Positions 726 through 21,993 of a stretch of DNA of 22,190 nucleotides are shown one piece after another. The stretch's first letter is position 1. Every line of letters begins with the position of its first letter. A program made the position numbers and the translations under genes. The notes beneath the pieces are model-generated. The model saw only the letters and a list, made by a program, of their open reading frames with translations. It was not told where the DNA came from and ran no database searches. The DNA comes from Desulfobacteraceae bacterium (GTDB lineage Bacteria; Desulfobacterota; Desulfobacteria; Desulfobacterales; JAIFKL01): NCBI GenBank assembly GCA_020049595.1, contig JAIFKL010000306.1:1-22190 (forward strand). The letters run 5' to 3'.

Positions 726-846
726 AAGCAAAACGGGTTTCAAACCCGTTTTACAATGACAGAAAAGTAGAACGGGTTTCAAACCCGTTTTACAATGACA
801 GAAAAGTAGAACGGGTTTCAAAACGGGTTTCAAACCCGTTTTACGA
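726..846 (+). repeat. Tandem array (about 3.5 copies) of palindromic element GTAGAACGGGTTTCAAACCCGTTTTAC with ~13-nt AATGACAGAAAAG spacers
   Basis: Direct reading: AAACGGGTTT/AAACCCGTTT inverted arms, unit period ~40 nt. The third unit carries an extra half-arm (acgggtttcaaaacgggtttcaaacccg). The minus-strand ORF 696-908 is simply a translation of these repeats (KTGLKPVLLFCHC x3). Confidence 0.9.
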
Positions 847-992
847 AGTGTAGGGCGGGCATGAAATGCCCTTTTTGCAATTATCCCCTCACGAATGCAC
901 ATAACCAATCAAAAAAACACAGATTTCAGCCGCCGGCAGTTTCATGTTTATTTTACTTTTAATTCCCGTTCATTCAGGGTAAAATAAAAAAA

Positions 993-1061
993 TATCCGGC
1001 AGCGGTATAGAAAGAGGTGGCATCTCCCGCTCACCTGCTTCTATACCGCTGCCAAATATCC
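993..1061. promoter_or_regulatory. Long imperfect inverted repeat in the 5' leader of the AsmA-like gene
   Basis: ATATCCGGCAGCGGTATAGAA at 993-1013 pairs with TTCTATACCGCTGCCAAATATCC at 1039-1061. A nested AGGTG/CACCT pair sits inside the 26-nt loop. The element lies ~30 nt upstream of the ATG at 1093. Confidence 0.35.
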
Positions 1062-1092
1062 ATGCTGTTATCCGTGAATCCATTTAACTTCG

Positions 1093-4000
1093 GTGTGTGC
1101 ATCCGTGGCAAAAAATACACCCAAACACCGCATCATCTTGAAATATTTGAGCTTTCAATCTTTCAATTCCCCTTTTGCAAAGGAAGGCAGGAGGAAATTT
1201 CTTCTTGCGGCAATCCTCATTCTCACGGCAGCGGTTCTTTTAGTGCCTGATATTGTGTCAACAAAATGGTTCTGCGGCTTTCTTGAAACTCGGATTTCAA
1301 ATGCCGTGAAGCGACTGGTCAAAATTGAAAACCTGAAATGGCAATGGTCTGAGGGTCTGCTGATTCAGGGTTTTTCCATAGCAGACGATCCGAATTTTTC
1401 ACATCAGCCCATATTGTCCGTAGTCAGCGCAAAACTTCTTATAAACATTGAGATTTTCGGAAATAGGCGTCTCTGTCTCAACTTCATTTGCCGGGGTGCG
1501 GATATTCGTCTGATTCGTGACAGAAAGGGAGAGAGCAATCTGGAAAAATTACTCTCACAGATAATCTCTGCCGAAGACAAACAAAAAGAGAAGTCACAGC
1601 CGCCGTTTTTTCTGCCCCTTGATGTTCAAAGCGATATTCATCTGAATGACTTCTCTTTTCTGGCAGAAGACCGCTTGCGTGAAAAACAGCTTGCTTTAAA
1701 AAATGCCTCCCTGTATCTGGACATGCCTTCGCTTTATTCGGAACCAATAACTCTCACGCTCTCATCGGATGCGGAATTGGACGGGAAGAAATTTCCGCAG
1801 ATTCGTTTAAAAGCCATGAGCAAAAACCTCTTTGACGCCGAAGGCGCATTGAATCTGAACGGCGGCGAGATAAAGGCCGTGCTTCCCGGCCTACAGTTAG
1901 ACATCTGCGGCGATCTGTCTGCTCGTGAGATAAAAAGCGATATAAGCTTGGATTTAGAGCCGTTGAGCGACATTCTCAAGCCTTTTTTACCTCCCCCGAT
2001 GTCTGATAATGAGCTGTCAGGCAAAGTTAAATTTATCGCTGAAACTTCCGGCGATCCCTCGCAGGCTTTTGATTTTGATATGCGTCTTGAGGGCTTTGAT
2101 GTGAACATTTCCGGTGAATTGCTTAAAGGCAAACATCTCGGTCCCCTCAATTTCAGAATTGCCAATAAAGGCGATTTTGACTCAGGCAAAGAGAAATTGT
2201 CTGTTGAAGCCGGAGAGATTCATTTAGATAACAGCCGTCTTATCTGGAGCGGCACGGCATCAGGCATACTTCACGGCTCACCGGATTCTGTTGATATAAA
2301 AATCAATCCCTTAGAGATTAATCTGGAAGAATTTCTGACATCAATGCGTGCTGTTATGCCGCGGCTGATTTCCGGCAGTGAGATAAAAGGCAATTTGAAA
2401 CTTAGGGGAGAAACTCAGGGCAACTTTCGGAAAGCCTTTTCTTTTGATGCGAACTTGGAAGGAGATAAAGTGAGTATTTCCGGTAATCTGCTTAAAGGCA
2501 AACATCTCGGTCCTCTCAATTTCAGAATTTCAGATAAAGGCGATTTTGACTCAGATAAAGGAAAATTGTCTGTCGAAGCAGGAGAGATTCGTATCGGCAA
2601 CAGCCGTTTTGTCTATAACGGCGTGTTAGAGAGCCTGCATGACAGTCCGGCGATCAACTTAAATCTAAGCCGGTTACGATTTGATCTCGGAGAGCTGCTG
2701 AACGCCGCGAGTGATTTTCTGCCTGAGAAATTTCCGCTCAGTTTCAACTCAGGAGACAAGAGACAATCTCCGATTCTGGAAGCGCAGGATGCTGTGTTTT
2801 CGGGTCCCCTGTCCGCGGGCCCGAATCCTGCCGAGATAAATGACTTATCTCTCAATGTTCCCGATTTTCAGTTCAATTCAGACAAAATAAAGCTGTCAGG
2901 TTCGGAAATTAAGCTTATGATTCCTCATGTCAAAACAACTCTCCGAGATTTTTTTCCAGAAGATGCTTATTTAACTGCATCTTTAAACTTAGATTCACTC
3001 AGCATAATGGGAGAAAAAGAAATAGCGGTCAGAGACTTGGAAATTCCCAACCTGAGCTTTAAATCCGAGCAAATCCGAAAATCCGAAACAGCGCTGTTCG
3101 GTATTGTCTCATCTTTTTCGTTGCAAGAATCCCTTGCTGTCGCCGAATTTAATATGCCGTCATTATTCGGTGTTGCAGGTCTCAGACATTCTCTGACCGC
3201 AGAATGCGCTTTGTCAAACACAGATGCTGAAGTCAAGCTGAGAGAGTTAAAAATTTCTGCGCCGGTTTTGGCGATTGAGAAAAAGAAATCTTCAAGCTTG
3301 AAAACAAGTCTTGAACTTGATACACGCATAAACAGCGCAACGCTCCGGCGTCTCTCGCCTTTGAAATTGGATATAAGCGGCGCAAGATCACGAGTCATTG
3401 TCGGCGTTCCCGGTGAGAGCAGAAAACTTGTCTCATTGGAAATTCAGGCAGATGCAAAAGACACCGGCAAAAACCTTCTCAATACCAAAGGAAATCTCTC
3501 GACAAGCCTCGATATGCTCTCGAAAAACTTCGCTTCGCTTTTTATTTCTCATCTAGAAAAATCAGACCTGAAGGGAGATGCGGAATTTGGGTGGAATTTT
3601 TCAGGCAGGCTCCCGAATGATGCGGAAGTAAAGAAACTCAGTACATTTTCAACAACAGATGTTGAGCAAAACCTGAGTTTTCTTGAGCAATTGGATATTT
3701 TTACTCAGATGAAAGCGGTTGAGGCGGATGTGAAGCTCGGAAAGCAAAAGCGAGTGAAGATAAAGTCTCTTTCAACTTCTCCGATGAGATATAGTTTTGA
3801 CAGAAAAACCGGCAACGGAAAGCTGTCCGGCGAAATTTCCGCAGAAGGTATTGAAGAAATTCCTTCGCAGAAGCTTGAAAAGCCGTTGAGCCTTTACTTA
3901 TCATTTTCTGCTAATCATCATTATTTTCAATCGGTTTCGATTTCTCAATCCGCAGAAATAAAACCATCAGACATAAAGGCAAATCTGGATGTCTCTCTCT

Positions 4001-5181
4001 ACGGCATAGATAAAATGCTTCAAAAAGGGCTGGACAGTCCTTTGTCTTTGTGGCATAATAATCTCGGTGGAAAAATCCGTACAGTTGTGAGTGTTCCGAA
4101 CACTGCAAATGTCTCGTCGTTCCTGCCATGGCTTGATATTAAGGGCGGGGCTGACGCCGATGCGGAAGCAGAATCAGTTCCGGGCAAAAGCATCAGCGCA
4201 AAAGCCCGGATCAATGTCTCAGATGCAGATTTTCGGGCGGGAAATGCCTTCACGATGAAGGGTCTGAACGCCGATGTTCGTATCGGGAAGCACTACAAGA
4301 TACTGAAAGAGCAAAATCCGAATGCTGAACAGAAAGCCGGCCCCGAAAAAAAAGTCCGTCCTTTGTCTGCGGAGGTGATGGAGACAAATCCGCAGAAGCC
4401 TTTTACTTCCGGCGTCGGTGCGGTTCAAAGCTTCTTGAACAAAATGCAGAAACAAGTCAATGTGAGTCATACCTTTTCCTTTGCATCTGCCCGCATCGGC
4501 GCAAAACCGCCGCAATTTGAAATCGGTCAGACGGTCACAGACCTTGATCTGAGCCGAGAACTGCCCGGTCTGGATCATTTTCGTATTGACTTGCTGGGGG
4601 GAAGTGTAGTAGGTTCTGTTCTGACATCGGAAAAAAGCGGCGCAGGCTCGGAACCGCTTTATTTCGTGAAACTCCGGCTAAGTTTTTCAGGTCTGGATAT
4701 GGAAAAAATATTTCCCGATATGACTTACAAAGCCGGAGATGCGGAAGTGAGCGGGCAGTTGTCGCTTTCCTTTCCGCTGAGGACTGAACTCAAACCCTTG
4801 CTTCAGGAAACACAGCTTGATATTCAGTTTACGCATATCGGTCATCGGGCTGTTGAACGGATGCTTTATGCGCTCGACCCTTATGAAAGCAATGAGGCAA
4901 TTGTCTCCCAACGCGAACTTTTTCGTAAAGGAATCCCCCGCCGGATTGCTATCGCAGTGAAAGACGGGAATCTTTCACTGAGCGGCGAAATTGAAGCAAA
5001 AGGCATTTTGCTGGAAATCCCGCGTCTGGAAAGGCTCAACATTGCCAATATCTCAGGCATTGACAAACTCGGAGAATATCTCATTCACCTGAAAGCGATT
5101 GCTGAGATATTGAAAATCACCTCTGCAAATGTGTTGAAAATCAAAGAAAACGGAACAATAACAATGGACAGAGATGGATAA
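1093..5181 (+). CDS. Large envelope protein, AsmA-family/TamB-like (N-terminal signal-anchor, AsmA-type N-domain, internal ~122-aa tandem repeats)
   Basis: 1362-aa uninterrupted ORF. The N-terminus has basic residues followed by the hydrophobic stretch FLLAAILILTAAVLLV (signal anchor). After the TM segment the sequence resembles AsmA N-domains (…TRISNAVKRLVKIENLKWQWSEGLLIQGFSIADDPNFS). The rest is long and beta-rich and rich in D/S/G/L. Start is uncertain: an AGGAGG at 1189-1194 is in frame but no start codon follows it at proper spacing; the ATG at 1093 is taken from the track. Confidence 0.5.
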   Translation: MCASVAKNTPKHRIILKYLSFQSFNSPFAKEGRRKFLLAAILILTAAVLLVPDIVSTKWFCGFLETRISNAVKRLVKIENLKWQWSEGLLIQGFSIADDPNFSHQPILSVVSAKLLINIEIFGNRRLCLNFICRGADIRLIRDRKGESNLEKLLSQIISAEDKQKEKSQPPFFLPLDVQSDIHLNDFSFLAEDRLREKQLALKNASLYLDMPSLYSEPITLTLSSDAELDGKKFPQIRLKAMSKNLFDAEGALNLNGGEIKAVLPGLQLDICGDLSAREIKSDISLDLEPLSDILKPFLPPPMSDNELSGKVKFIAETSGDPSQAFDFDMRLEGFDVNISGELLKGKHLGPLNFRIANKGDFDSGKEKLSVEAGEIHLDNSRLIWSGTASGILHGSPDSVDIKINPLEINLEEFLTSMRAVMPRLISGSEIKGNLKLRGETQGNFRKAFSFDANLEGDKVSISGNLLKGKHLGPLNFRISDKGDFDSDKGKLSVEAGEIRIGNSRFVYNGVLESLHDSPAINLNLSRLRFDLGELLNAASDFLPEKFPLSFNSGDKRQSPILEAQDAVFSGPLSAGPNPAEINDLSLNVPDFQFNSDKIKLSGSEIKLMIPHVKTTLRDFFPEDAYLTASLNLDSLSIMGEKEIAVRDLEIPNLSFKSEQIRKSETALFGIVSSFSLQESLAVAEFNMPSLFGVAGLRHSLTAECALSNTDAEVKLRELKISAPVLAIEKKKSSSLKTSLELDTRINSATLRRLSPLKLDISGARSRVIVGVPGESRKLVSLEIQADAKDTGKNLLNTKGNLSTSLDMLSKNFASLFISHLEKSDLKGDAEFGWNFSGRLPNDAEVKKLSTFSTTDVEQNLSFLEQLDIFTQMKAVEADVKLGKQKRVKIKSLSTSPMRYSFDRKTGNGKLSGEISAEGIEEIPSQKLEKPLSLYLSFSANHHYFQSVSISQSAEIKPSDIKANLDVSLYGIDKMLQKGLDSPLSLWHNNLGGKIRTVVSVPNTANVSSFLPWLDIKGGADADAEAESVPGKSISAKARINVSDADFRAGNAFTMKGLNADVRIGKHYKILKEQNPNAEQKAGPEKKVRPLSAEVMETNPQKPFTSGVGAVQSFLNKMQKQVNVSHTFSFASARIGAKPPQFEIGQTVTDLDLSRELPGLDHFRIDLLGGSVVGSVLTSEKSGAGSEPLYFVKLRLSFSGLDMEKIFPDMTYKAGDAEVSGQLSLSFPLRTELKPLLQETQLDIQFTHIGHRAVERMLYALDPYESNEAIVSQRELFRKGIPRRIAIAVKDGNLSLSGEIEAKGILLEIPRLERLNIANISGIDKLGEYLIHLKAIAEILKITSANVLKIKENGTITMDRDG

Positions 5182-5210
5182 CATTATCTCGTTCCCACGC
5201 TCCGGTGAAG

Positions 5211-5269
5211 TAGAGCGGGTTTGAAACCCGCTTTTCTGGAATACGAAACGAGTTGGAAACTCGTTTTAC
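5211..5269 (+). repeat. Two variant copies of the palindromic element with compensatory stem changes (GTAGAGCGGGTTTGAAACCCGCTTTTC; AAACGAGTTGGAAACTCGTTTTAC)
   Basis: Compared with the consensus AACGGGTTT/AAACCCGTT, both arms change together (AGCGGGTTT/AAACCCGCT and AACGAGTT/AACTCGTT), so pairing is kept. Each stem is followed by a T-run. The copies lie between two plus-strand genes and could act as intrinsic terminators of the AsmA-like gene. Confidence 0.8.
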
Positions 5270-5328
5270 GCAGAGCGTTTGAATGAGATAAGAGACGGTC
5301 TTTTACTTATAAATAGGAGATAAAAAAA

Positions 5329-5891
5329 ATGAAAGTATTACTTCTTATCATGCTTATGTTCGTATCAGGCTGCACGCTGGCACAAGTAAAAGTTGAAGTG
5401 GTCAGCGAGCGCACCGCGCTGGAAAATCAGGTTCTCGGAACTTACAATTCCCTTGACAGTGAAATGCTTCTGCTGGCTTCGGTCAGAAGCGTGGATTCTG
5501 AAGGCAGCATTCAGAAGCCCCCGCGTCAAAGTCAGGAGCATAAGGACGCGATGACTGCAATTCAGGTTCAGTCATTTCACGCCGATGATGTTCAGGCATT
5601 TAAGCAATTGAGATGGGTCGGGGAAAATAATGAAGGGTTGCTGACGGCATTCCAGATGAGCAAAGAAAACGCGCCTGAAAATCTGAAAGATTTCGCTGCC
5701 AGATACACATCAGAAGAATTTAATGCCGTGATTTCCCAAGTCAATCAGTCAAGAGAGATCATCATGCTGCGAGTCATTGAGATGAATGAAAACCTGAAGG
5801 AAAGCGACATGCCGGAAATTCGCCGCATCTTCGGAAAGCTCAATGCGGAAAACGCCCTGAACGGCGAAAAGATTCAGTCCGAAAACGGGAC

Positions 5892-5910
<19 letters not shown>
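5329..5910 (+). CDS. Small periplasmic lipoprotein, possibly DUF1318/YdbL-like
   Basis: AGGAGA sits 9 nt upstream of the ATG. Signal peptide with lipobox LMFVSGC. A C-terminal GEKIQSENGTWTIKE motif resembles the conserved C-terminus of YdbL-type DUF1318 proteins. The stop overlaps priA by 19 nt. Confidence 0.45.
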
Positions 5911-8348
<2,438 letters not shown>

Positions 8349-8373
8349 CCTCTCCCACCCCTCCACCTCCCCT

Positions 8374-8434
8374 TTTTTAACCTCACCCCCGGCCCCCTCT
8401 CCGAAGGAGAGGGGGCCGGGGGTGAGGTTAAAAA
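8374..8434. repeat. Perfect 61-bp GC-rich palindrome (29-bp arms, GAA loop), preceded by a 30-nt all-pyrimidine tract (8349-8378)
   Basis: TTTTTAACCTCACCCCCGGCCCCCTCTCC GAA GGAGAGGGGGCCGGGGGTGAGGTTAAAAA lies immediately after the priA stop. A T-run precedes and an A-run follows it on both strands, so it is not a canonical intrinsic terminator in either direction. Confidence 0.85.
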
Positions 8435-8443
8435 CAAAAAAAA

Positions 8444-8472
8444 TTGACAAGCCCTTGATTATGTCACAATAA
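8444..8472 (+). promoter_or_regulatory. Possible sigma70-type promoter for the small ORF (TTGACA-17 nt-CAATAA)
   Basis: Consensus -35 TTGACA at 8444-8449 with a weak -10 candidate at 17-nt spacing. Sequence-only guess. Confidence 0.2.
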
Positions 8473-8532
8473 GATATTATATTTAACTTTAAACACATCA
8501 AACAACCCATCAGTTGAATAAGGAAAATAACA

Positions 8533-8721
8533 ATGATTACTCCTGTAAAAATTATCGGAGCCAATAAACTGCTTTCAGCCATGGGCAAAGCTCTGTTTGT
8601 TTCCAACATCATAAACACTGTCTCTTTTTTCGGTATCGGCAGCCTCATTATATGGCAGGTGTGGAGAGGCACGGAAGGCGTAAAGAAGCTGGGGACAAAA
8701 ATTGATGAATCCAAAAAATAA
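8533..8721 (+). CDS. Hypothetical small protein (62 aa) with one hydrophobic segment
   Basis: AAGGA sits 8 nt upstream of the ATG. The hydrophobic stretch VSFFGIGSLIIWQVW and a Lys-rich C-terminus are present. No family recognised. Confidence 0.4.
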   Translation: MITPVKIIGANKLLSAMGKALFVSNIINTVSFFGIGSLIIWQVWRGTEGVKKLGTKIDESKK

Positions 8722-8728
8722 AGGCTGG

Positions 8729-8811
8729 CTCGGAGTGCAAAAATTATCAGATACCCGTTTTTTGGCTTATGCAAAATAGCCTGATTTTATAAGACGCTTT
8801 TGCACTCCGGA
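8729..8811. terminator. Long-range inverted repeat (CTCGGAGTGCAAAA … TTTTGCACTCCGGAG) between convergent small genes; candidate bidirectional terminator
   Basis: 14-bp arms at 8729-8742 and 8797-8811 enclose a smaller GGCTTAT/ATAGCC stem. A CCCGTTTTTT half-copy of the dispersed repeat is also enclosed. Confidence 0.35.
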
Positions 8812-8817
8812 GTCTGA

Positions 8818-9015
8818 TTATTCCTCAATTTCCTCAATTTCGGCTTTGACAGGCACTTTCTTGTCGGAGGCCAGCAATAAAAATAAACCGATGATGGGGC
8901 CCAGCAGCAGCGAGCCGAAAAAATAGCCCCAAAATCCCATTTTCCTGTTGATCCCCATGAGTCCGATAACCAGACTCGCCACTGCCCATGCTATCGTTAT
9001 GATTGTCGGTGACAT
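8818..9015 (-). CDS. Small two-TM membrane protein, possibly PLDc_N-type (cardiolipin-synthase N-terminal-like) domain
   Basis: 65 aa with two hydrophobic helices. GSLLLGPIIGLFLLLASDKK resembles the P-x-x-G-x-x-x-Y/F-L-L-F-G-R/K motif of PLDc_N small membrane proteins. Acidic C-tail EIEEIEE. Weak SD. Confidence 0.4.
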   Translation of the reverse strand: MSPTIITIAWAVASLVIGLMGINRKMGFWGYFFGSLLLGPIIGLFLLLASDKKVPVKAEIEEIEE

Positions 9016-9060
9016 GGCATTCCCCGCCTTTTTTTAAAAAAAATAATAAAAACTTGGCAA

Positions 9061-9083
9061 CGCTTCGCTCAGAATGACAATCC
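9061..9083 (-). repeat. Inverted copy of flank motif (reverse complement GGATTGTCATTCTGAGCGAAGCG)
   Basis: See feature 692-714. Again adjacent to a palindromic array, but in the opposite orientation. Confidence 0.5.
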
Positions 9084-9113: not shown

Positions 9114-9135
9114 TCTGATTTCAAACTACATAAAA

Positions 9136-9323
9136 GTAGAACGGGTTTCAAACCCGTTTTACTGAATGATATAAAAGCAGAACGGGTTTCAAAACCCGTT
9201 TTACTGAATGACATAAAAGTAGAACGGGTTTCAAACCCGTTTTACCGGGATAAAGTAAGCAGAACGGGTTTCAAAACCCGTTTTACTGAATGACAAAAAA
9301 GCAAAACGGGTTTCAAAATCACC
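9136..9323 (+). repeat. Tandem array (4.5 copies, period ~41 nt) of palindromic element G[TC]AGAACGGGTTTCAAA(A)CCCGTTTTAC with TGAATGACATAAAAG-type spacers
   Basis: Copies at 9136, 9177, 9219, 9259 and a half copy at 9301. Alternate copies have a one-A-longer loop (CAAAACCC). The spacers are near-identical to one another, so these are not CRISPR spacers. Confidence 0.9.
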
Positions 9324-9355
9324 TTCTTTTTCACCGCTGCCAAAAATTTAAAGCA

Positions 9356-13855: not shown

Positions 13856-13870
13856 TATGATACGCAAAGA

Positions 13871-13934
13871 AATTGAGAATTGAGAATTATTTCTCAATTC
13901 TCAATTCTCAATTTCTAATTACTAATTACTAATC
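13871..13934. repeat. Heptamer-repeat palindrome (AATTGAG x2 / CTCAATT x3) followed by TAATTAC x2, filling the intergenic gap between the lipoprotein and channel B genes
   Basis: AATTGAGAATTGAGAATT at 13871-13888 pairs with AATTCTCAATTCTCAATT. The TAATTAC repeats overlap the stop of the upstream gene (13929-13931). On the minus-strand mRNA the hairpin is followed by UUUCUUUG and then the ATG at 13855. Confidence 0.8.
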
Positions 13935-16661
13935 TTTAAGATACCAGTTTCGGATATGCTGACCCCCGATTGCCATCTGATACCAGCCTTTGACTCTCGG
14001 TTTTACCAGACAGTGCGCCGCCTCAAAATAAAGCGGAAAAATCACCGCCTGCTCTTCGCACAGAATCTGTTCCGCACGTTTGTAAATCTTTTTTCTCTCT
14101 TCGGGATTCGTGGTTTCCAATGCTTTTGTCATCAGATCGGCAAACTCCGCATTATCCCAGCCCGTAAAATTGTCCGGGTTGCGGGGGTTGAACAGTTCAT
14201 TGAGAATATTGTTCGCATCCGGATAATCCACAGACCAGCCGAACCTGCATATATGGTGCGAAGACGTATCCGGCTGATACAGATATTTCACATAATTATC
14301 CCATGTTTCTTCCCTGAGAATGAGATGAATGCTGAGATAATACTCCAACGATGCCTGAACCGCACGGGCAATCTCCGAATGGGTTTTGGAGGCATTGTAA
14401 AGGAGTTCTATCTCGGGAAAACCTTTGCCGTCCGGATAACCGGCTTCTGCCAGCCATTTTTTCGCCTGCAAAGGATCAAAACTGATGCCCACCCCGTTTT
14501 TCGGATCAACGGAACCCAGAATCGGCGGTGGCGTATAAGTCGTTGCCGGTGACTCGCCGCTTTTGGTGACCAGATCAATTAAAAACTGACGGTCAACCGC
14601 GGCGCAGATCGCCTTCCGAACCAGCGGATTGTCCATCGGCGGACGTTTGGTATTAAAGCCGTAGGAATATGTCGCAAACATCGGCGCTCTTGAATATTCT
14701 TTGCCGAGCTGGGGATTTGATTTAATATCATTCAGTTGTGCAAAAGGCAGCCGCAGATAGTTTCCGCCGGTTATGTCTAATTCGCTGTTTTCATACATGA
14801 CCAGACCCACCGCGCTTTCAGGTATGATGTAAAACCGGACTTCAGGGATGGAAACTTTTGACGCTTCGTAGTAATCCGGATTCTTCCTCAATATCATCAG
14901 CATCCCTTTGTCCCAGTACGTGAGTTTGTAAGAACCGTTTGTCTGAATGTTTTCAGGTTCTGTCCAGCGGTCCCCGTATTCTTCAACAGTCTCACGGGGC
15001 AGGGGTCTGTAAATCGCAAGCCCTGCCATTCCCGGAAAATACGCGGCAGGGTGTTCAAGCTCAAATTCCACGGTAAAATCATCGGGCGCATGTACGCCTA
15101 TCTGCGAGACATCCTTAATATTTCCGGCATTGATCTCTTTGGCGTTTTTCAGAATATAGAGCATGGAAACAGAGGGGCATTTGGTTTCCGGTCTGATATT
15201 CCGCTGAACTGCCCAGACAATATCACTCGCCGTAACCGGCTTGCCGCTTGTCCATTTGGCATCCTCGCGCAGTTTGAAGCGGTAGGTCTTTCCGTCATCG
15301 CTGACGGTCCAGCTCTGAGCCAGTTCGGGAACCGCTTCATAAGTTTTCGGATCAAAATCGGTCAGTCCCAGAAATATCTGCTCAACCGCTTCAACAGAGG
15401 AAATGTCCTGTGAAAGTCCCGGATCAACGGTCGTGATAAGCCCTTCCACGGGAAGCCGCAATGTGATTTCTTCCACCACATACAAAGGGCTGATTTCCTC
15501 TTTTGATTCATAATCCAACAGCTCGAATTTCCCGTTGCGAAGCTCTTTGAAAAAAATTTCTTTTCCGGCAATATCGCCGTTCAGCTTGAAAGAATAGGAG
15601 CCGGTAGCCCCTTTCCAGTTTTCTAAGAACCTCAGCGCGGATCCCATGGCAACGGGAACCGCGGAACCGCTCTTTTCAATGCTGTATGCCAGCAGTTGAA
15701 CCGCATCATATCCCTGAGCCGCCCATGTATCCGGCACCACGCCGAATTTTTTCCGAAACTTTTTGACAAAATCCCGTGTGCTTTTTGAAGGCATATCAGG
15801 ATTGAAAACCGAAGGAACGATCACATGCTCCGCGCTTTTCCCCGCCACCGTAAAAAGTTCCGGCGAGTCAAGGCTGTGTCCGCCGATAAAGGGAACGCTG
15901 ATGCCCATGCCTCGCGCCTGCTTGATCAGTTCTCCGGCAAAGGGAAGCAGTCCGCCGATAAAAACCGCATCAAATTTGTAATTTTTGGCAAGTTCCGATG
16001 TGATGCTCCTGAAATCTTTCTGCCATTTGAAATAAGAACGGACAGCGACAATCGTAATTCCCAGCTTGTCGGCTTCTTCGCTGAAAATATCGGCAAGGCG
16101 CTGGCCCGCGGTCTCTCTTTCATAAAAGACCGCCATTTTTCTGAATCCTTTCTGATAAGCCAGCGTTGCCGCCTTTTTTCCGGTTTCATCATCGGAGAGC
16201 ATATTTCTGAATGTATAGGTGCCGCCGTATTGTGTAAAGTTCGGGTCTGTCGCGCCCGTGGAAATAAAAAGAATACCCGTGTTTTCATAGATGATGGACA
16301 CCGGCACCGCAACGCCTGAGTAGCGATGCCCCACTACCGCAACCACATCGGGATGCGCTGCTAATTTCCTTGCAACAACCTGGGCAATATTGAGATATCT
16401 TTTGTCGTCGTAAAACAGGGGATGGATTTTTCTTCCCAGAGGTCCCCCCTGTTCGTTGATTTCCGACACTGCCAGATTGACGCCTTCCGTAAACAGGCTG
16501 GGATCAAAAGAAGAATCCACCACGCCGATACAAATATCCGCTTTTGACTCCCCGGCCCGTTTGGCTCTTTCTTCAGGCGATAGGGTGTCATTGCCGCAGG
16601 AAAAAACAGACAGCAGCGCTATGAGCAGAATAATGTGTTTACCTGTTTGCATCCGGCGCAT
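13929..16661 (-). CDS. Dual substrate-binding lipoprotein: N-terminal LivK-like PBP1 domain fused to C-terminal SBP family 5 (OppA/DppA/NikA-like) domain
   Basis: AGGAAA sits 6 nt upstream of the ATG. Lipobox LLSVFSCGND. Residues ~40-380 are PBP1 (ICIGVVDSS…VAVVGHRYSGVAVPVS…). Residues ~395-910 are SBP_bac_5 (VEQIFLGLTDFDPKTYEAVPELAQSWTVSDDGKTYRFKLREDAKWTSGKPVTASDIVWA…). The start overlaps the upstream SPFH gene's stop by 23 nt. Confidence 0.75.
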   Translation of the reverse strand: MRRMQTGKHIILLIALLSVFSCGNDTLSPEERAKRAGESKADICIGVVDSSFDPSLFTEGVNLAVSEINEQGGPLGRKIHPLFYDDKRYLNIAQVVARKLAAHPDVVAVVGHRYSGVAVPVSIIYENTGILFISTGATDPNFTQYGGTYTFRNMLSDDETGKKAATLAYQKGFRKMAVFYERETAGQRLADIFSEEADKLGITIVAVRSYFKWQKDFRSITSELAKNYKFDAVFIGGLLPFAGELIKQARGMGISVPFIGGHSLDSPELFTVAGKSAEHVIVPSVFNPDMPSKSTRDFVKKFRKKFGVVPDTWAAQGYDAVQLLAYSIEKSGSAVPVAMGSALRFLENWKGATGSYSFKLNGDIAGKEIFFKELRNGKFELLDYESKEEISPLYVVEEITLRLPVEGLITTVDPGLSQDISSVEAVEQIFLGLTDFDPKTYEAVPELAQSWTVSDDGKTYRFKLREDAKWTSGKPVTASDIVWAVQRNIRPETKCPSVSMLYILKNAKEINAGNIKDVSQIGVHAPDDFTVEFELEHPAAYFPGMAGLAIYRPLPRETVEEYGDRWTEPENIQTNGSYKLTYWDKGMLMILRKNPDYYEASKVSIPEVRFYIIPESAVGLVMYENSELDITGGNYLRLPFAQLNDIKSNPQLGKEYSRAPMFATYSYGFNTKRPPMDNPLVRKAICAAVDRQFLIDLVTKSGESPATTYTPPPILGSVDPKNGVGISFDPLQAKKWLAEAGYPDGKGFPEIELLYNASKTHSEIARAVQASLEYYLSIHLILREETWDNYVKYLYQPDTSSHHICRFGWSVDYPDANNILNELFNPRNPDNFTGWDNAEFADLMTKALETTNPEERKKIYKRAEQILCEEQAVIFPLYFEAAHCLVKPRVKGWYQMAIGGQHIRNWYLKD

Positions 16662-17934
16662 TCGTATTTCCTGTCAGTTCGGAGCGGTCTTTTTCAGTGA
16701 CCCTTCCGGTTCTGTCTTTTTCGGTTACCATTCCGGATTTATTTTTGATTTCAGATCGCTCGTCTTTTTGAGCCTGTTCTGTTTCACGGGGAACCGCTTC
16801 CCCGGCGTCACGTATAAATTCATATTTACGAGTTGTTCCGGTTTCACCGCCTGTTTTGCCGGTTTCCGCTGCTCCGCCCGTTTCTGTTTTTTCGGACGCC
16901 TCTGTTTTTCCGGCAGGCTCGGTTGTAATGCCTGTTTCTGTCTTTTCAGATGCTTCTGTTTTTCCGGCAGGCTCGGTTTTTCCGCCTGTTTCCGTGCCGG
17001 GGGCGGCTTTCTCGGATGATTCAGATTTTTCAAGGGCTTGGGTTTTTATCATCGGCTCTTCATTCAGTAAGATACTCCCTATGATCGGCAAGCCTCTTTT
17101 ACCCGCGCCGACAACCACAACTTTTGAATTGTCCGAATTGGCAAGCTGCAATGTTGCCTGAATGCCCATCCACTGCAATATATTTTCCGTAAGCGAGGCG
17201 TTTACAATATTGTTATAATCTTTTAATCCCCCGGCTTCGATACGCTTTCTTTCCGCCTCTCTTTTTTCCTTCTCTATCTTAAACAGATGCGCTTCCGCCA
17301 TGTGTTTCTGTTCGACTTTATAGCGTATGGAATCTGCAACGCTGTCAGGCAGTTCGACTTCTTTGATAATCACATCGTCAACTTTGATAAATCTTCGGGA
17401 AATCTGCTCAATCGCCTCGTTGATTGCCTGGTCTATCAGCCCTGTTTTTGTGGTGTAAATCTCCTCGGCATCCAACTGTCCCACAATCAGACGCAATACA
17501 GATTCGATTTCCGGGATCACAATTTCATTCACATAATCGGGACCCACTTTCTGGTGAAGCACGCCGAGCAGGTTATATTCGGGGTAATAACGGACAGATA
17601 TGGATAACTGAACCTTCAATCCGTTTTTCGTCAGCACATGAAACTTGTGTCCTGCCTGCTGTACCCTCATATTATAAACATAAAGTCTGTCCCAGGGATA
17701 AAGCAGATAAAGCCCCTCGGCAAAGACCTTATCCGTGATTGTTCCGCCGCCGAAGCGCTTGTATAAAACGCCCGCTTCCCCTGACTCAACCGTATAGACA
17801 ATATTGTTAAACAGATAGGCAATAAAGAGCAGTTGAATCAGAATAAGCACTATCAGCACGGAGACATTGCCCTGAAATTTTTCTAAAATGCCGTTATATA
17901 TATCTTTAATTTTATTAAATATTCTTTTAAACAT
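16639..17934 (-). CDS. SPFH/band-7 (stomatin/prohibitin/HflK-C family) membrane protein with coiled-coil and low-complexity repeat tail
   Basis: N-terminal TM (VSVLIVLILIQLLFIAYLF), then an SPFH domain (VESGEAGVLYKRFGGGTITDKVFAEGLYLLYPWDRLYVYNMRVQQAGHKFHVLTKNGLKVQLSISVRYYP…), a coiled-coil (KIEKEKREAERKRIEAGG) and a 17-aa tandem repeat tail (PAGKTEASEKTETG…). The track start is TTG at 17964; the ATG at 17934 is the likely start. Confidence 0.75.
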   Translation of the reverse strand: MFKRIFNKIKDIYNGILEKFQGNVSVLIVLILIQLLFIAYLFNNIVYTVESGEAGVLYKRFGGGTITDKVFAEGLYLLYPWDRLYVYNMRVQQAGHKFHVLTKNGLKVQLSISVRYYPEYNLLGVLHQKVGPDYVNEIVIPEIESVLRLIVGQLDAEEIYTTKTGLIDQAINEAIEQISRRFIKVDDVIIKEVELPDSVADSIRYKVEQKHMAEAHLFKIEKEKREAERKRIEAGGLKDYNNIVNASLTENILQWMGIQATLQLANSDNSKVVVVGAGKRGLPIIGSILLNEEPMIKTQALEKSESSEKAAPGTETGGKTEPAGKTEASEKTETGITTEPAGKTEASEKTETGGAAETGKTGGETGTTRKYEFIRDAGEAVPRETEQAQKDERSEIKNKSGMVTEKDRTGRVTEKDRSELTGNTNAPDANR

Positions 17935-17968
17935 TTCTTCTGATTTCCGGTTTAGCCCACCCAATAGC

Positions 17969-17995
17969 GTAGAACGGGTTTTAAACCCGTTTTAC
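17969..17995 (+). repeat. Single copy of palindromic element, loop variant (GTAGAACGGGTTTTAAACCCGTTTTAC)
   Basis: Direct reading. It lies between the ABC-transporter stop and the SPFH start. Confidence 0.85.
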
Positions 17996-18068
17996 TGCAT
18001 AAATATTTGTTTTGGCGGGCAGCAAGCTGCTCACCCTGCATCTGATTTCCGAATTTGCGGTTTTTAAT

Positions 18069-19703
18069 TTAAACCTGACTGCTGTACTCGACAAATTTGC
18101 CGTATTCCATCTTCAATACCCTGTCTGCAAAATCAAAATATCGGTCGTCATGGCTGACCGCGATAATTGTTTTTCCCTGCGCTCTCAGATCGTTTAATAA
18201 AACTTCATAAAAATATTTTCTGAAAATCGGATCCTGATCCGCGGCCCATTCGTCAAACACGCAAATCGGGCGTTCCTCAAGCAAAGCGGCAATCATTGCA
18301 AGTCGTTTCCGCTGTCCTGTGGAAAGCTTGATATTGGTAAATTCGCCGTCAATGACCTCTGTTTTCTTTTCCAATTCCATCAATTTGATAAGACTTCGGA
18401 TTCTATCGGCATCTGTTTCTCTCAAGCCGTAGAGCCTGTCAAACACATGAAAATCGCTGAAGATAATAGAAAACATCTCCCGATATGACTGATAAGATGT
18501 CTTGTCAATCGTCAAATCATCCACTCGGAGGGTGCCGGCATCGGGATAATACAGTCCGGTTAAAAGCTTGAGCAAAGTTGATTTTCCGCTGCCGTTGCCG
18601 CCGACGATAAAGATGATTTCTCCCTGCCGGGCCCTCATATTGACAGGCCCCACCGTAAATAAAGGCGTTCCGTAAGAATCGGTATAGGAAAAAGAAAGGT
18701 TCTCAAGACGGATTTCGTTAAAGGTTTCTATCTTTCTGACATGAGGCTTTCCCCCGACTTTAAACGGCGCTGCGGCTTTGTCCAATCTTGCTTCCAGTTC
18801 ATAGAGCGTTTCCACTGCCATATTTGCTCTGGAAAAAAGCGGTATCGCACCCACCATCAGATTCACCGGACCGATGATAAACAGAATGGCGGCAGTCAGC
18901 CGGATGACCAATGAAGGATTTGCCGGGTCCAATCTGGGCAGAACAAAAACAATAACAGCGAGTAATGTGTAAAAAAACACTTGGGAGAACATCAGTTCCG
19001 TGACAAATCTGAATCCGGTTTTGACCTTCAATTCCTCGGTTTCATCTGCTATTTTTGTCAGAAATCCGAAAAGATCATCGCTTTTTTTTCTGTTCATTTT
19101 GAGTTCTTTGAAGCCGTCAAGGGTCTGATTCAGCATATCAAAGAAATCGCTTTCTTTTCTTGCGGTCTCACGGATTTCTATGTCAATTTTATCCTGCTGC
19201 AACATATAATTGACGGTCGCCGCGCCGATGGCAATAACGGTGATGAAAAAAGCCAATTTCGATAAGACAGCAATATAGAACATGCAGAAAAACAGTACAA
19301 TGCCGGACTGGGCCGCGTTGATAATCAGCACGGCGGATTCGGAAATAAGATTGGTGTTATAAGTGATCCGAGTATAAATTTCCGCTTTTCCGGTGTTTTC
19401 CAGAAAAATAAGTTCCGAACTTCTGATTTTATCGGCAATCCTTACCCGTATGCGTTTGATGATGGCCTCGGCAAGAGCGGTTGCTCTTTTCAAAGCAAAT
19501 CGTTTTCCGATAATCACAATGGCGAAAGTAATCACAAACAGAAGAAAGAATCTGAAATTCAGGCTGTCGTAAGAAGCAGTGGCAGCCGCAGTGGTGATAA
19601 TGCCCAGCAGAAGTCCCTGCGCGATGCCCGAGACAATTGCCATAAACATCACCGATGTGCCGGAAACGGTTGATTCGTTTTTATATAGTTTCAGCAGATT
19701 CAT
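18069..19703 (-). CDS. ABC transporter, fused permease/ATPase, cyclic-peptide exporter family (SyrD/YojI-like)
   Basis: Six N-terminal TM helices, then an NBD with Walker A GGNGSGKST, ABC signature LSTGQRKRL, Walker B ICVFDEW and H-loop AVSHD. Size and arrangement (TMD-NBD, 544 aa) fit the cyclic-peptide transporter subfamily. Confidence 0.7.
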   Translation of the reverse strand: MNLLKLYKNESTVSGTSVMFMAIVSGIAQGLLLGIITTAAATASYDSLNFRFFLLFVITFAIVIIGKRFALKRATALAEAIIKRIRVRIADKIRSSELIFLENTGKAEIYTRITYNTNLISESAVLIINAAQSGIVLFFCMFYIAVLSKLAFFITVIAIGAATVNYMLQQDKIDIEIRETARKESDFFDMLNQTLDGFKELKMNRKKSDDLFGFLTKIADETEELKVKTGFRFVTELMFSQVFFYTLLAVIVFVLPRLDPANPSLVIRLTAAILFIIGPVNLMVGAIPLFSRANMAVETLYELEARLDKAAAPFKVGGKPHVRKIETFNEIRLENLSFSYTDSYGTPLFTVGPVNMRARQGEIIFIVGGNGSGKSTLLKLLTGLYYPDAGTLRVDDLTIDKTSYQSYREMFSIIFSDFHVFDRLYGLRETDADRIRSLIKLMELEKKTEVIDGEFTNIKLSTGQRKRLAMIAALLEERPICVFDEWAADQDPIFRKYFYEVLLNDLRAQGKTIIAVSHDDRYFDFADRVLKMEYGKFVEYSSQV

Positions 19704-19807
19704 GTAAAGTTTTTCTTATCGCAAGGACTGTCAGCAATCCACTGTCTGAATCAGGATTTTCAGGATTAAAGGATTCACGGGATATTTGTCCGAGTGCTAA
19801 TTATTGT

Positions 19808-19840
19808 AGGGGGCGCGCCGCCGGCGTGTCCCCTACGGTT
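19808..19840. other. GC-rich hairpin GTAGGGG-(GCGCGCCGCCGGCGTGT)-CCCCTAC at the 3' end of the hydrolase gene
   Basis: 7-bp stem with a self-complementary CGCCGGCG core in the loop. On the plus strand it is followed by GGTTTTAC. Possible terminator; weak. Confidence 0.3.
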
Positions 19841-21703
19841 TTACGATACGCGTATCCGAAATCGCTCATCCCAGATATAGGTGATGAATCCCTGACCCGG
19901 ATTGTCAGAAATCTCTTCCGGCTCTGCCGTTCTTTTTTCTCCCGAAGAAAGACCGCCGCCCAGAATCGTGATCGCATCAAAGATCACAATGTCTTTTATC
20001 TGTCCGTCCTCAGACCTTAATGTCCTGTTGGTGCAGGCTGCGATGGGGATACGGGTATTCGGGTCATAAACGATGCCGACGTCATAGCCCAGAAAGTTAC
20101 CGGATGCAATCAGCATGTTGTTCGAGAGATTTTTGTAGAGATTGGGACCGCACTGAGTTGCAGGATTCATCGGGAAATAAAGTTCCGGGTCAACCGTTGT
20201 GTCATTTACAAAATCATAGCCTTTGCCGAAGAGCTTGCCTTCGCCGATGAGTTTGATCCATTTGCACAGATTTTCAGGCGAGGAAATCATACACGCCGAT
20301 GAACTGGCAGCAGAGGGTTCACGAGTCGAAGCATCTTCCAAGCCCTTGTCTTTACTTCCGTACATCGCGCCGGTCACATCATACAGGTCAATGTAGCCGT
20401 GAGCATAATTTCCCTCTGTCGGATTCTGAGTATATGGACCTTCAAGGTTTGATTCTCCTGTTTCAGTAACAATGGTGTCGCTGAGTCCGTATTTCTTGAT
20501 AAAACGGTTCCGTATCTCATCTTCCCATTTATTGCCGGTCACTTCCTTTATGAGCATTCCCAGCAGAACATAATTCGTATTCGAGTAATGCCAGCCCGCT
20601 CCGGGAGGAAAGGTCGGACCTTCTTCAACAGCAAGTTCAATGAGTTCGAGCGGTTCCCATTTGTCCTGACGGAGAAAGAGAAAATCAAAAAACCAGTCAG
20701 AAGGCACTTCATAAAAATTGTACAGCCCGCTGGAATGATTCACCACCTGACGGATATTGATGTTTTCCCCGTTGGGAATCAGTCCGGGGAACCACTGTTC
20801 AACAGAATCGTCCAGCGTGATTTTTCCCTCTTCGACAAGCTGCATGACGGCCATTGCCACAAATGTTTTGGTCAGACTGGCGACCCGGAACCGGGTATTT
20901 GTGGTCATCTGTGTTTTTGTTTCCAAGTTGGAATAACCGCTGGTCAGTTTCCATGTGAAAGCACCGTCCGAATAGGTCACACCGTCCATTACGCCGTTTA
21001 AGCAGTCGTCTCCCTCACAGGGAACTTCAGCAACCAGGGCCACGCCGGGGACCTCGTTTTCGGAAACAGCTTTATCCAAAATGTCCTGCAATTTTGTCCG
21101 AATAAAGTGATTCTGCGCCCTGACTGCTGAAACCATATCCCGCTCTTTGCCCAGCAAATCAGCGATGACAGGCTCTGTTTTCGTCTCAAATTCGCTCGAA
21201 CTTAATGAAAAGTCAACTTCTGTACTGTATTTCTTTGATTTTTCTCTCACGGATTCTGACAGAAGAATGCCGTTATCCGGATTCGCGTCGTCATCCAATG
21301 TCTGCAAAAAGCGCAGAATATTTGTCACCTGCGGGTCTCTGTCGCTTTCCGCTGCGGAAACCAAATCTCTGGGCGTCAGCGTCAGAACAGCCGGAGCAAG
21401 TTCCGCTTTGTTTACATCCAGTGTCAGCACGGTTGTCGCAGACCCGAGTACAATGTTTCCAAGCTTGAAGGTAACATTTTTGCCTTTTTCATAGAAGAAA
21501 GTGCCGTCCGCGTCGGTTACGCCGGTAAGCCCCCCGGAAATATAGCTCAGACCCTGAACCGCACTGTCTATAAAACGTCCTTCTCTTTCGGACACATAGT
21601 CCTCATGTTCGCCGCTGCACCCGAAAGCAGACATCATCACTACCAGCATCGCTGCAAAAAGATAAGGTGTTTTATCAAACACGATATTTCGTTTTTTCCT
21701 CAT
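19841..21703 (-). CDS. Beta-lactamase-fold serine hydrolase (PBP/esterase family) lipoprotein with ~210-aa N-terminal extension of unknown function
   Basis: AAGGAG sits 7 nt upstream of the ATG. Lipobox MSAFGCSG. The S-x-x-K active-site motif FRVASLTKTF and the YSN-type motif HYSNTNY are both present. The C-terminal part is Gly/Asn-rich. Confidence 0.7.
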   Translation of the reverse strand: MRKKRNIVFDKTPYLFAAMLVVMMSAFGCSGEHEDYVSEREGRFIDSAVQGLSYISGGLTGVTDADGTFFYEKGKNVTFKLGNIVLGSATTVLTLDVNKAELAPAVLTLTPRDLVSAAESDRDPQVTNILRFLQTLDDDANPDNGILLSESVREKSKKYSTEVDFSLSSSEFETKTEPVIADLLGKERDMVSAVRAQNHFIRTKLQDILDKAVSENEVPGVALVAEVPCEGDDCLNGVMDGVTYSDGAFTWKLTSGYSNLETKTQMTTNTRFRVASLTKTFVAMAVMQLVEEGKITLDDSVEQWFPGLIPNGENINIRQVVNHSSGLYNFYEVPSDWFFDFLFLRQDKWEPLELIELAVEEGPTFPPGAGWHYSNTNYVLLGMLIKEVTGNKWEDEIRNRFIKKYGLSDTIVTETGESNLEGPYTQNPTEGNYAHGYIDLYDVTGAMYGSKDKGLEDASTREPSAASSSACMISSPENLCKWIKLIGEGKLFGKGYDFVNDTTVDPELYFPMNPATQCGPNLYKNLSNNMLIASGNFLGYDVGIVYDPNTRIPIAACTNRTLRSEDGQIKDIVIFDAITILGGGLSSGEKRTAEPEEISDNPGQGFITYIWDERFRIRVS

Positions 21704-21886
21704 TTCTTTTCTCCTTACTCAGTGCTGTCATTCCGAACACAGTGAGGAATCTTTCAGCCGATCTTATACCGAATTTTATTAAAATAGATTCGACTTGCGG
21801 TGGACTGAAATGACAGATCACACCATACGTTTTGAAAATAACGAAAGCAAAAAAAATCATTTTGTCAAAATTTCATCATCCTACAG

Positions 21887-21993
21887 ACAGAACGGGTTTC
21901 AAACCCGTTTTACTGTTCATTGCTGTAGAACGGGTTTCAAAACCCGTTTTACTGTCCGGTTTGCTGTAGAACGGGTTTCAAACCCGTTTTACT
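21887..21993 (+). repeat. Tandem array (3 copies, period ~40 nt) of the palindromic element
   Basis: Copies at 21887, 21926 and 21967, with TGTTCATTGCT and TGTCCGGTTTGCT spacers. Same plus orientation as all other arrays, although both flanking genes are on the minus strand. Confidence 0.9.

Follow-up and report, generated by a model that had tools for sequence, protein, structure and literature searches.

A probable GTAG-tagged REP family with head-to-tail arrays in a presumed relative of Desulfatirhabdium

The window, a stretch of 22,190 nucleotides from a Desulfobacteraceae bacterium (contig JAIFKL010000306.1), carries a palindromic repeat that is best explained, with a probability of roughly 0.7 for the explanation as a whole, as a lineage-specific family of GTAG-tagged repetitive extragenic palindromes (REPs) whose units have been dispersed, presumably by a REP-associated tyrosine transposase (RAYT), and duplicated in tandem, and whose common orientation in the window is due to chance. 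The host is probably a bacterium related to Desulfatirhabdium (Desulfobacterales). Neither a new type of element nor a replication-linked orientation rule emerges from these data. The repeats represent a clearly defined GTAG-tagged REP family from an uncultured lineage of sulfate reducers (Desulfatirhabdiaceae-like), a group in which REP-type repeats have been little described.

The repeat unit and its copies in the window

Across the whole window, the 27-nt near-palindrome GTAGAACGGGTTTcAAACCCGTTTTAC is present in 13 full and 2 partial copies at five intergenic sites. An earlier note on this DNA had claimed a dispersed palindromic family, and this family is real: a pattern search of the window found the core GTAGAACGGGTTTCAAACCCGTTTTAC where it had been reported, with 0 matches expected by chance, and de novo repeat finding returned one family of 14 copies. 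A covariance model, built from the repeat family itself, located the 13 full copies, which are listed here together with the two fragments.

728..754, + strand: array 1, copy 1, GCAAAACGGGTTTCAAACCCGTTTTAC (46.5 bits on +, 44.1 on -)
767..793, + strand: array 1, copy 2, exact consensus (50.1 bits)
806..822, + strand: array 1, truncated copy GTAGAACGGGTTTCAAA, joined to the next copy via a 12-nt slip (period-12 repeat at 810-834)
818..844, + strand: array 1, copy 3, TCAAAACGGG...TTTTAC (35.3 bits on +, 33.2 on -)
5210..5236, + strand: array 2, copy 1, compensated AGCGGG/CCCGCT subfamily, GTAGAGCGGGTTTGAAACCCGCTTTTC (43.5 bits)
5243..5269, + strand: array 2, diverged copy ACGAAACGAGTTGGAAACTCGTTTTAC, stem still formed (22.7 bits, E 5e-4)
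9136..9162, + strand: array 3, copy 1, exact consensus (covariance model)
9177..9204, + strand: array 3, copy 2, GCAG head, loop with one extra A (40.1 bits)
9219..9245, + strand: array 3, copy 3, exact consensus (covariance model)
9259..9286, + strand: array 3, copy 4, GCAG head, loop with one extra A (covariance model)
9302..9318, + strand: array 3, final copy, truncated, GCAAAACGGGTTTCAAA (repeat finding)
17969..17995, + strand: site 4, lone copy with T in the loop, between the end of an ABC transporter gene and the start of a Band-7 gene (48.4 bits)
21887..21913, + strand: array 5, copy 1, ACAG head (covariance model)
21925..21952, + strand: array 5, copy 2, loop with one extra A (covariance model)
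21966..21992, + strand: array 5, copy 3, exact consensus (covariance model)

All five sites lie between called genes, in agreement with the description of the copies as always intergenic. The GTAG end is on the + strand in every copy, and the covariance model scores all 13 full copies higher on + than on -, by a margin of merely ~2 bits for those at 728 and 818. As far as 8348 the genes are encoded on +, and those beginning at 9356 and beyond on -, so the claim that the orientation disregards gene strand stands for the window. Other genes of the window encode PriA and a DUF1318 protein. Two further claims of the earlier note had to be revised. What it described as a plus-strand T-run forms the 3' arm of the 12-bp stem, and when the window was scanned for terminators, arrays 1 and 3 were called on the - strand only. 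The density, which had been considered exceptional, is high only locally, with 5 arrays in 22 kb, whereas in related loci a further array occurs roughly every 26-29 kb.

The repeat unit, of ~27-31 nt, has the form (CT)GTAG-AACGGGTTT-n-AAACCCGTT-TTAC, and a hairpin of 9-12 bp is predicted from either strand. For the 27-nt unit, the predicted fold has a 12-bp stem and a 3-nt loop, with -14.7 kcal/mol on the GTAG strand (z = -5.7) and -10.9 kcal/mol for the hairpin of the complementary strand. As a single-stranded oligonucleotide, the repeat reads CTGTAGAACGGGTTTCAAACCCGTTTTACTG. The GTAG tag can pair with the 3' TTAC (G-C, T-A, A-T and G.T) and, with this partial complementarity, GTAG is found on both strands in 34 copies. 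In 213 oriented copies among the matches listed, the 5' head is asymmetric, with G in 95%, T in 86% (C in 11%) and A in 95%, while the fourth base is G by construction since the orientation was called from that base; in the full set, the fourth position forms a G.T pair in 217 of the 298 copies among the matches listed. The stem positions are near-invariant in the copies of the relatives listed among the matches, and of the 298 listed copies 282 have A-T at pair 6-22 and 14 have G-C, while the pair is broken in only 2. Within the window, the copy at 5210 is a member of the G-C subfamily. A CT dinucleotide directly precedes GTAG in 49% of the singletons and in 31-37% of the array copies, against ~6% by chance, although it could instead be an outer part of the palindrome.

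Dispersal and array growth in related genomes

Related DNA contains at least 298 copies in at least 186 arrays on at least 142 loci (~1.2 Mb). The same 27-mer occurs in the DZCT01 and DYRK01 genome bins, in JFJP01 contigs and in the window, and also in Desulfatirhabdium-labelled genomes and related metagenome contigs. A literature search found no paper on JFJP01, and the contigs matching the ABC and DUF1318 proteins of the window span just the region of the window itself. One 27-mer is exact in at least 91 copies with unrelated flanks, and the presence of an identical 27-mer in unrelated flanks of several genomes points to the dispersal of single units to unrelated intergenic sites. Two other matches do not belong to the family. 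A match from a viral scan is a coincidental hairpin from which the GTAG...TAC flanks are absent, and a Prolixibacteraceae match (L017) shares the stem but is flanked by other sequences, and hence represents a different family.

With regard to the gene context in the relatives, the arrays with called genes on both sides among the matches listed lie between 99 co-directional, 20 convergent and 11 divergent pairs, compared with 680, 67 and 78 background gene pairs, respectively, which amounts to a ~twofold enrichment for convergent spacers among these matches. Only 11 of the 186 arrays among the matches listed are inside called genes, and one intragenic copy lies in frame within an NRPS gene.

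Single-copy sites account for 65% of the sites in the relatives among the matches listed. The remaining arrays hold 2-7 copies with a period of 37-42 nt, and none of the 66 multi-copy arrays listed in related DNA has a mixed orientation, all of them being head-to-tail. The spacers, mostly of 10-15 nt, are 75% identical within arrays versus 41% between arrays, and the flanking DNA is visibly duplicated together with the unit. Arrays extend by local head-to-tail tandem duplication of the unit with a short piece of its flank, and the copies within an array are therefore necessarily co-oriented.

The arrays also differ between closely related strains. A contig that is 99.6-99.9% identical to the window (L156) lacks the entire array 5 (about 21845-22020), the position of which is occupied by 21 unrelated nt, and two pairs of loci, L013 with L068 and L027 with L060, also differ in their orthologous spacers. 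The absence of one whole array from a near-identical contig shows recent turnover, and arrays are gained or lost quickly, with differences even between near-identical strains. Such arrays break metagenome assemblies, as illustrated by contig L157, which terminates inside array 1.

Orientation, rival explanations and the proposed agent of dispersal

The uniform orientation in the window had been attributed in the earlier note to elements that propagate via the single-stranded DNA of one replication strand. According to this explanation, insertion would be IS200/IS605-like and the orientation uniform along each replication arm, as might be suggested by the 13 of 13 full copies that score higher on + across the switch in gene strand, by GTAG and CT, which are features of single-strand transposase substrates, and by the preference of IS608-type elements for the lagging-strand template (PMC3333891, PMC6006769). 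Nevertheless, this explanation seems very unlikely. Since the arrays are head-to-tail and grown by local duplication, the window holds five independent orientation events and not 14, and the probability of five sites alike is ~ 2*(1/2)^5 = 0.06, or ~0.058 at the observed antisense:sense ratio of 60:40. Among the matches listed, neighbouring arrays on one contig of the relatives have the same orientation in 15 pairs and the opposite in 10, and without the pairs closer than 500 nt, 11 are alike and 10 of the 21 opposite at distances of 0.8-10 kb, the pairs having also been checked by eye. For instance, L012 carries three + copies followed, after 778 nt, by two - copies, and L119 has arrays on +, - and + over 6.4 kb. 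A correlation between raw GC skew and orientation (p = 0.007) arises only because skew tracks gene strand (r = 0.88), and correction for gene strand leaves no association (odds ratio 1.05, p = 1). With neighbours that flip about half the time and no link to gene strand or residual skew, the replication-strand idea is unsupported, and since the relatives carry both orientations side by side, the common + orientation of the five window sites looks like chance, without a special cause. The earlier note had reasoned that the co-orientation would be chance if copies were randomly oriented genome-wide and no RAYT-like gene existed; mixed orientation is indeed found in the relatives, while the absence of a RAYT holds for a sample of 1.2 Mb and not genome-wide.

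This sample was searched with two tblastn queries, E. coli RayT and the L147 Y1 protein, together with two HUH...Y motif scans over 1.2 Mb. Neither the window nor the ~1.1-1.2 Mb of sampled repeat-bearing loci of related genomes yielded a RAYT or any other Y1 transposase. The single hit, the L147 protein itself, was rejected as the RAYT of the family, as it belongs to an unrelated organism of 65% GC in which the 'repeat' is a coincidental hairpin inside a gene. L012 provides one inverted pair of arrays among the matches listed, which was discarded as a REPtron because it encloses a small unrelated gene and the region upstream of that gene. The protein families recurring beside arrays are ordinary paralogues (sigma-54 activators, ABC ATPases, AMP-ligases, MCPs, acyl-CoA dehydrogenases and TPR proteins), with no transposases among them.

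The lack of a transposase in these loci would also be expected if the hairpins were RNA or transcription signals selected by the host, such as terminators, attenuators or 3'-end stabilisers, multiplied by local duplication and recombination only. In an intrinsic terminator, a U-run comes after a GC-rich hairpin, both read in the same sense as the gene upstream. The repeats lie mostly after genes with the excess in convergent spacers described above, they form stable hairpins from both strands, the conserved G.T is a legal wobble in the RNA of the GTAG strand only, and arrays 1 and 3 fit the terminator pattern when read on -. However, only array 3 agrees in strand with its upstream gene (-), whereas array 1 is called on the strand opposite to its upstream gene (+) and is followed by a separate GC hairpin with a T-run at 857-871. 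Furthermore, the orientation relative to the upstream gene is mixed in the relatives (32 sense versus 48 antisense among the matches listed), one copy is in frame inside an NRPS gene, termination does not require three to seven tandem copies, and a structural signal has no need to keep 27 bases almost unchanged across hundreds of unrelated sites and several genomes. A host-selected signal as the primary explanation is unlikely. The repeats may have a role at transcript ends: since most units lie 3' of genes and form a hairpin whichever way they point, transcripts probably terminate in these hairpins or gain stability from them.

Two other identities are even harder to reconcile with the arrays. 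CRISPR arrays have unique spacers of ~26-72 nt and cas genes nearby, and the 27-nt palindromic repeats, regularly spaced with a period of 37-42 nt, could suggest degenerate CRISPR-like arrays or small-RNA genes. This is highly improbable, since the spacers are just 10-15 nt long and near-identical within an array, 65% of the sites are single-copy, and the window contains no cas genes or domains. An Rfam search of the window (E <= 1) matched no family on the repeats, CRISPR repeats included; its only hits were false microRNA matches at hairpins elsewhere and, at 21881-21995, a weak match to Leu-leader that scored 25.7 bits where the threshold is 50. DNA-uptake signals are often found as inverted pairs in terminators, which would make the palindrome a pair of the half-site GTAGAACGGGTTT. 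This reading is scarcely credible, as 592 of the 666 half-sites lie within full palindromes, the 74 solo half-sites are consistent with truncated copies, and real uptake signals often occur singly within genes.

The preferred explanation, that of GTAG-tagged REPs, entails two processes. Single units are dispersed to unrelated intergenic sites, and at such a site the unit with a short piece of flank is duplicated head-to-tail into an array of 2-7 copies. By analogy with known GTAG REPs, the agent of dispersal would be a RAYT acting on the folded single strand, an enzyme that uses GTAG as a guide and cuts at a CT dinucleotide. Inverted doublets, such as REPINs and BIMEs, are the usual organisation of REPs and the presumed mobile unit. 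A REP family free of doublets, with lone units as substrate and arrays made by the transposase, or one that persists without a RAYT, is an alternative that seems decidedly improbable. In the former case, the nearly self-complementary unit, with the GTAG guide in the stem and CT at the foot, could be a complete substrate, and the head-to-tail arrays with a period of 37-42 nt could arise by repeated cleavage and strand transfer and not by replication slippage.

Comparison with known REP systems

REP elements occur in many bacteria. The likeness to them drawn in the earlier note holds, as the 5' GTAG tag, the upstream CT, the compensated stem and the typical gene context are all present, in line with the features described for GTAG-tagged REPs (PMC3733652, PMC2817692, PMC8266576). 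There are 24 such families, one of which, GTAG-14, is found in the related Desulfatibacillum alkenivorans (Di Nocera, De Gregorio and Rocco 2013, PMC3733652). As here, these families consist of palindromes of 20-40 nt in which one end carries a conserved GTAG (or GYAG), contain G.T pairs in the stem and include subfamilies with complementary stem changes. Most of their copies likewise lie outside genes, in spacers flanked by unidirectional or convergent genes, a few copies are intragenic and in frame, and their clusters are singletons reiterated in tandem with flanking DNA (PMC3733652). Nonetheless, the tag is an unpaired tail in canonical GTAG REPs, whereas here the 3' TTAC can serve as its pairing partner, the stem has a higher AT content than that of most families listed (PMC3733652), and head-head or tail-tail dimers, unlike in those families, are not seen among the matches listed.

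The REP-RAYT systems, or REPtrons, share with this family a GTAG guide that precedes a short, perfect stem with a small loop (Nunvar 2010, PMC2817692; Ton-Hoang 2012, PMC3333891; Corneloup 2021, PMC8266576), and the closest are those of group 3, with short perfect palindromes, such as in S. maltophilia. In both cases CT adjoins the hairpin, this dinucleotide being the cleavage site of RAYT (PMC8266576). REPtrons are defined by a RAYT gene in the same genome, flanked by two inverted REPs, and none was found among the sampled 1.2 Mb. REPINs are also short, dispersed REP-derived repeats that vary between close strains (Bertels and Rainey 2011, PMC3116915), but they are inverted REP doublets that form one long hairpin (PMC3116915), and inverted copies occur in 0 of the 66 multi-copy arrays listed. 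Similarly, the BIMEs of E. coli are intergenic REP clusters with short linkers in which REP and inverted REP alternate, whereas the units of every cluster described here point the same way. Head-to-tail arrangements of REPs have been called rare (PMC3733652), and the tandem amplification of REP units is an outcome modelled for RAYT by the authors of the REP-RAYT studies (PMC2817692, PMC3333891, PMC8266576). The exclusive head-to-tail organisation of this family is unusual among REPs and could serve as a useful test case for REP multiplication.

Repeats and other features of the window

GTAGAACGGGTTTCAAACCCGTTTTAC, with up to three mismatches, was matched at the places named in the earlier note, with no match expected in shuffled sequence. 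A repeat search grouped 14 copies in the window into one family, and Tandem Repeats Finder reported three arrays there whose periods are 39-42 nt. A covariance model based on 30 variants detected 13 full copies in the window; the + strand gives the better score for every one of them, by only about 2 bits for the copies at 728 and 818. Two extra repeat fragments lie at 806-822 and 9302-9318. The sites (arrays 1-5, in coordinate order) and the genes around them are as follows.

728-844, repeat site 1
5210-5269, repeat site 2
9136-9318, repeat site 3
17969-17995, repeat site 4
21887-21992, repeat site 5
up to 8348, + strand, genes for a MopE-repeat protein, a 1362-aa protein, a DUF1318 protein and PriA
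from 9356, - strand, genes for three periplasmic-binding-protein fusions, a Band-7 protein, an ABC transporter and a beta-lactamase-family protein
end near 22021, DUF481 gene

All five sites are intergenic, and the 13 full copies with their covariance scores bear out, for the window, the claim that the copies share one orientation whatever the strand of the genes; in each the GTAG end is on the + strand. The T-run that the earlier note assigned to the + strand forms the 3' arm of a 12-bp stem. A terminator scan flags arrays 1 and 3 exclusively on the minus strand, where the T-run of their hairpins comes from the complement of the A-rich spacer.

Several other repeats were observed in the window.

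1-641, partial left-edge gene with 150-nt tandem repeats encoding MopE-type putative metal-binding motifs
992-1059, imperfect 28-nt inverted repeat upstream of the 1362-aa gene
8374-8434, perfect inverted repeat of 29 bp (loop of 3 nt) between a T-run and an A-run, just past the stop codon of priA
9081-9118, 17-bp hairpin CCAGACCCTAAGGGTTTT/AAAACCCTTAGGGTCTGA adjoining array 3, flagged on the minus strand by the terminator scan
9319-9347, directly after array 3, partial copy (83% identical) of one arm of the 992-1059 inverted repeat
9356-13897, two neighbouring paralogous genes (products of 750 and 759 aa) with a periplasmic binding domain and a membrane region, then a longer, third fusion that carries an SBP_bac_5 domain
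13871-13933, 7-nt tandem repeats (AATTGAG, then TTCTCAA) covering the beginning of the 11618-13897 gene as well as the spacer between it and the next minus-strand gene
694-722, 9061-9079, 21726-21751, 5190-5207 and 8728-8742/8798-8812, other short modules: GTCATTCTGAGCGGAGCGAATAATGAC-like; CGTTCCCACGCTCCGGTG; CTCGGAGTGCAAAAA paired with TTTTGCACTCCGGAG

The inverted repeat at 8374-8434 looks like a bidirectional terminator, and Rfam returned only spurious microRNA matches for it. DNA segments of the two paralogues are about 70-78% identical at a 2256-nt offset. The short modules recur beside repeat copies in related loci, with gggaac, gaaatttcagct or aatgacataaaa abutting GTAG, so that the intergenic DNA of this lineage appears to be a mosaic made up of several small repeat families.

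Unit and array structure in related DNA

The repeat was found in at least 32 loci in a scan with each species represented by a single genome, 31 of them from bins labelled Desulfatirhabdium butyrativorans (DZCT01, DYRK01; Desulfobacterales, Desulfatirhabdiaceae), and in at least 120 metagenome loci in a symmetric-core scan, mostly from a single series of JFJP01 contigs. In the combined 1.2 Mb of related loci, the window's unique sequence is absent and, among the matches listed, the repeats alone match. In a Prolixibacteraceae contig (L017, 3052-3659), three hairpin copies have the stem of the family (CGGGTTTAAAACCCG) and different flanks (TTGTCCT); they are probably an unrelated local repeat family.

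The unit is nearly its own reverse complement, its asymmetry residing mainly in position 4 (G) versus position 24 (T), as in GTAG...TTAC, and in the loop base. The latter varies (C 52%, G 25%, A 14%, T 7%), without tight linkage to flank asymmetry in the unbiased metagenome set. In 298 copies from all sources, among the matches listed, pair 4-24 is G.T in 217, A-T in 35 and G-C in 34, and pair 6-22 is A-T in 282 and G-C in 14, with just 2 copies unpaired there; since changes at the latter are compensated, stem pairing is kept. The outer GTAG/TTAC positions accept C.A (GCAG in 34 copies) and retain G.T, which points to the sequence, not the pairing, as what is constrained. The 213 oriented copies give the consensus (a/g)CT-GTAGAACGGGTTTcAAACCCGTTTTAC-Tgt, with no conservation beyond those ends, and 91 copies, among the matches listed, are one exact 27-mer in unrelated flanks.

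At least 298 copies form 186 arrays among the matches listed: 120 of one copy, 37 of two, 20 of three, five of four, one of five, two of six and one of seven. None of the 66 multi-copy arrays in this set has mixed orientation, so that clusters are strictly head-to-tail. Spacers within an array have a mean identity of 75%, with 60% of pairs at least 80% identical, against 41% and 0.6% between arrays. The period is most often 37-42 nt, and the flanks of the first and last copies are duplicated along with the unit (73 nt in locus L014, 37-39 nt in L012 and L035). Arrays therefore expand via local tandem duplication of the unit with its flank.

In the related loci, among the matches listed, 99 arrays lie between co-directional, 20 between convergent and 11 between divergent genes, compared with 680, 67 and 78 background intergenic regions of the same loci; convergent spacers are thus enriched about twofold. 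REPs (repetitive extragenic palindromes) show such a co-directional and convergent gene context (PMC3733652). With the seed match excluded, these loci hold about one further array per 26-29 kb among the matches listed, an ordinary density for REP families. The high density described earlier is local, the window's five sites in 22 kb forming a cluster.

Orientation and turnover

One proposed reading of the shared orientation was spread through single-stranded DNA on one replication strand. Copies within an array are co-oriented by construction, so the window provides five independent orientation events, and five of five alike gives p = 2*(1/2)^5 = 0.06 (0.058 with the observed sense/antisense frequencies). 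In the related loci, among the matches listed, neighbouring arrays on one stretch are the same in 15 cases and opposed in 10, or 11 versus 10 once pairs less than 500 nt apart are removed; opposed pairs were confirmed by eye, and the arrays of one locus (L119) read +, -, + within 6.4 kb. Where the flanking genes are co-directional, the repeat is sense to them 32 times and antisense 48 times among the matches listed, which is not significant. GC skew tracks gene strand in related genomes (r = 0.88) and, once this effect is removed, residual skew is unrelated to repeat orientation (odds ratio 1.05, p = 1). These flips and the missing link to residual skew contradict uniform orientation per replication arm in the relatives, and the replication-strand explanation is not supported; the window's own genome contributes five sites only. 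Over the whole window and all related loci, the sense strand has a mean GC skew of +0.07, and skew correlates with gene-strand balance at r = 0.88. As skew follows the coding strand, the change of sign that it shows in the window at about 8 kb reflects the gene-strand switch and is not necessarily a replication landmark.

Two contigs from other assemblies match the region of the window itself, L156 with 99.6-99.9% identity to 7969-22190 and L157 with 99.96% identity to 822-8128. L156 (7839-7857) has 21 unrelated bases in place of the 177 nt that include array 5 (window about 21845-22020), between otherwise near-identical flanks; this loss or gain of a whole three-copy array is a recent indel between strains. 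Orthologous spacers of DZCT01 and JFJP01 differ in the presence, number and arrangement of units. L157 stops within array 1, which means that assemblies break at the repeat. Just past the window's right end, L156 carries a perfect-palindrome copy (GTAGAGCGGGTTTCAAACCCGCTCTAC, 5266-5292) in frame within a 2084-aa NRPS gene, where it encodes VERVSNPLY. The C-terminal part of the Band-7 gene holds a 54-nt tandem repeat (window 16875-16992, 2.2 copies), and overlapping L156 alignment blocks there suggest that its length differs between strains.

Relation to known REP systems

The window has no gene for a Y1/HUH transposase, and none was found near the repeats in the 1.2 Mb of related loci, among the matches listed, by motif scans and tblastn with E. 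coli RayT and the Y1 protein of locus L147. The latter was the sole transposase match among those listed and was rejected, as it belongs to an unrelated 65% GC organism whose hairpin is a coincidental one inside a gene. GTAG acts as a guide for RAYTs (REP-associated tyrosine transposases), which cleave at a CT adjoining the hairpin (PMC8266576), and tandem amplification of REP units by the enzyme has been proposed (PMC3333891). In the present family, the share of copies with CT immediately 5' of GTAG is 49% for singletons and 31-37% within arrays, versus about 6% by chance, an enrichment that fits this picture.

The REP analogy drawn in the earlier note holds: palindrome, GTAG head, compensated subfamilies and gene context match those of GTAG-tagged REPs, and the repeats are a real lineage-specific REP family, a new member of this class by its descriptive definition. 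Features in common (PMC3733652; PMC2817692) are a palindrome of 20-40 nt, the GTAG head, G.T pairs, compensated subfamilies, gene context, rare intragenic copies and tandem-singleton clusters that include flanking DNA. Unlike in REPIN/BIME arrangements, inverted doublets are absent among the matches listed. The present family also differs from GTAG-tagged REPs in that its clusters, among the matches listed, are all head-to-tail, an arrangement called rare in PMC3733652, and in that its GTAG head is able to pair with the 3' end.
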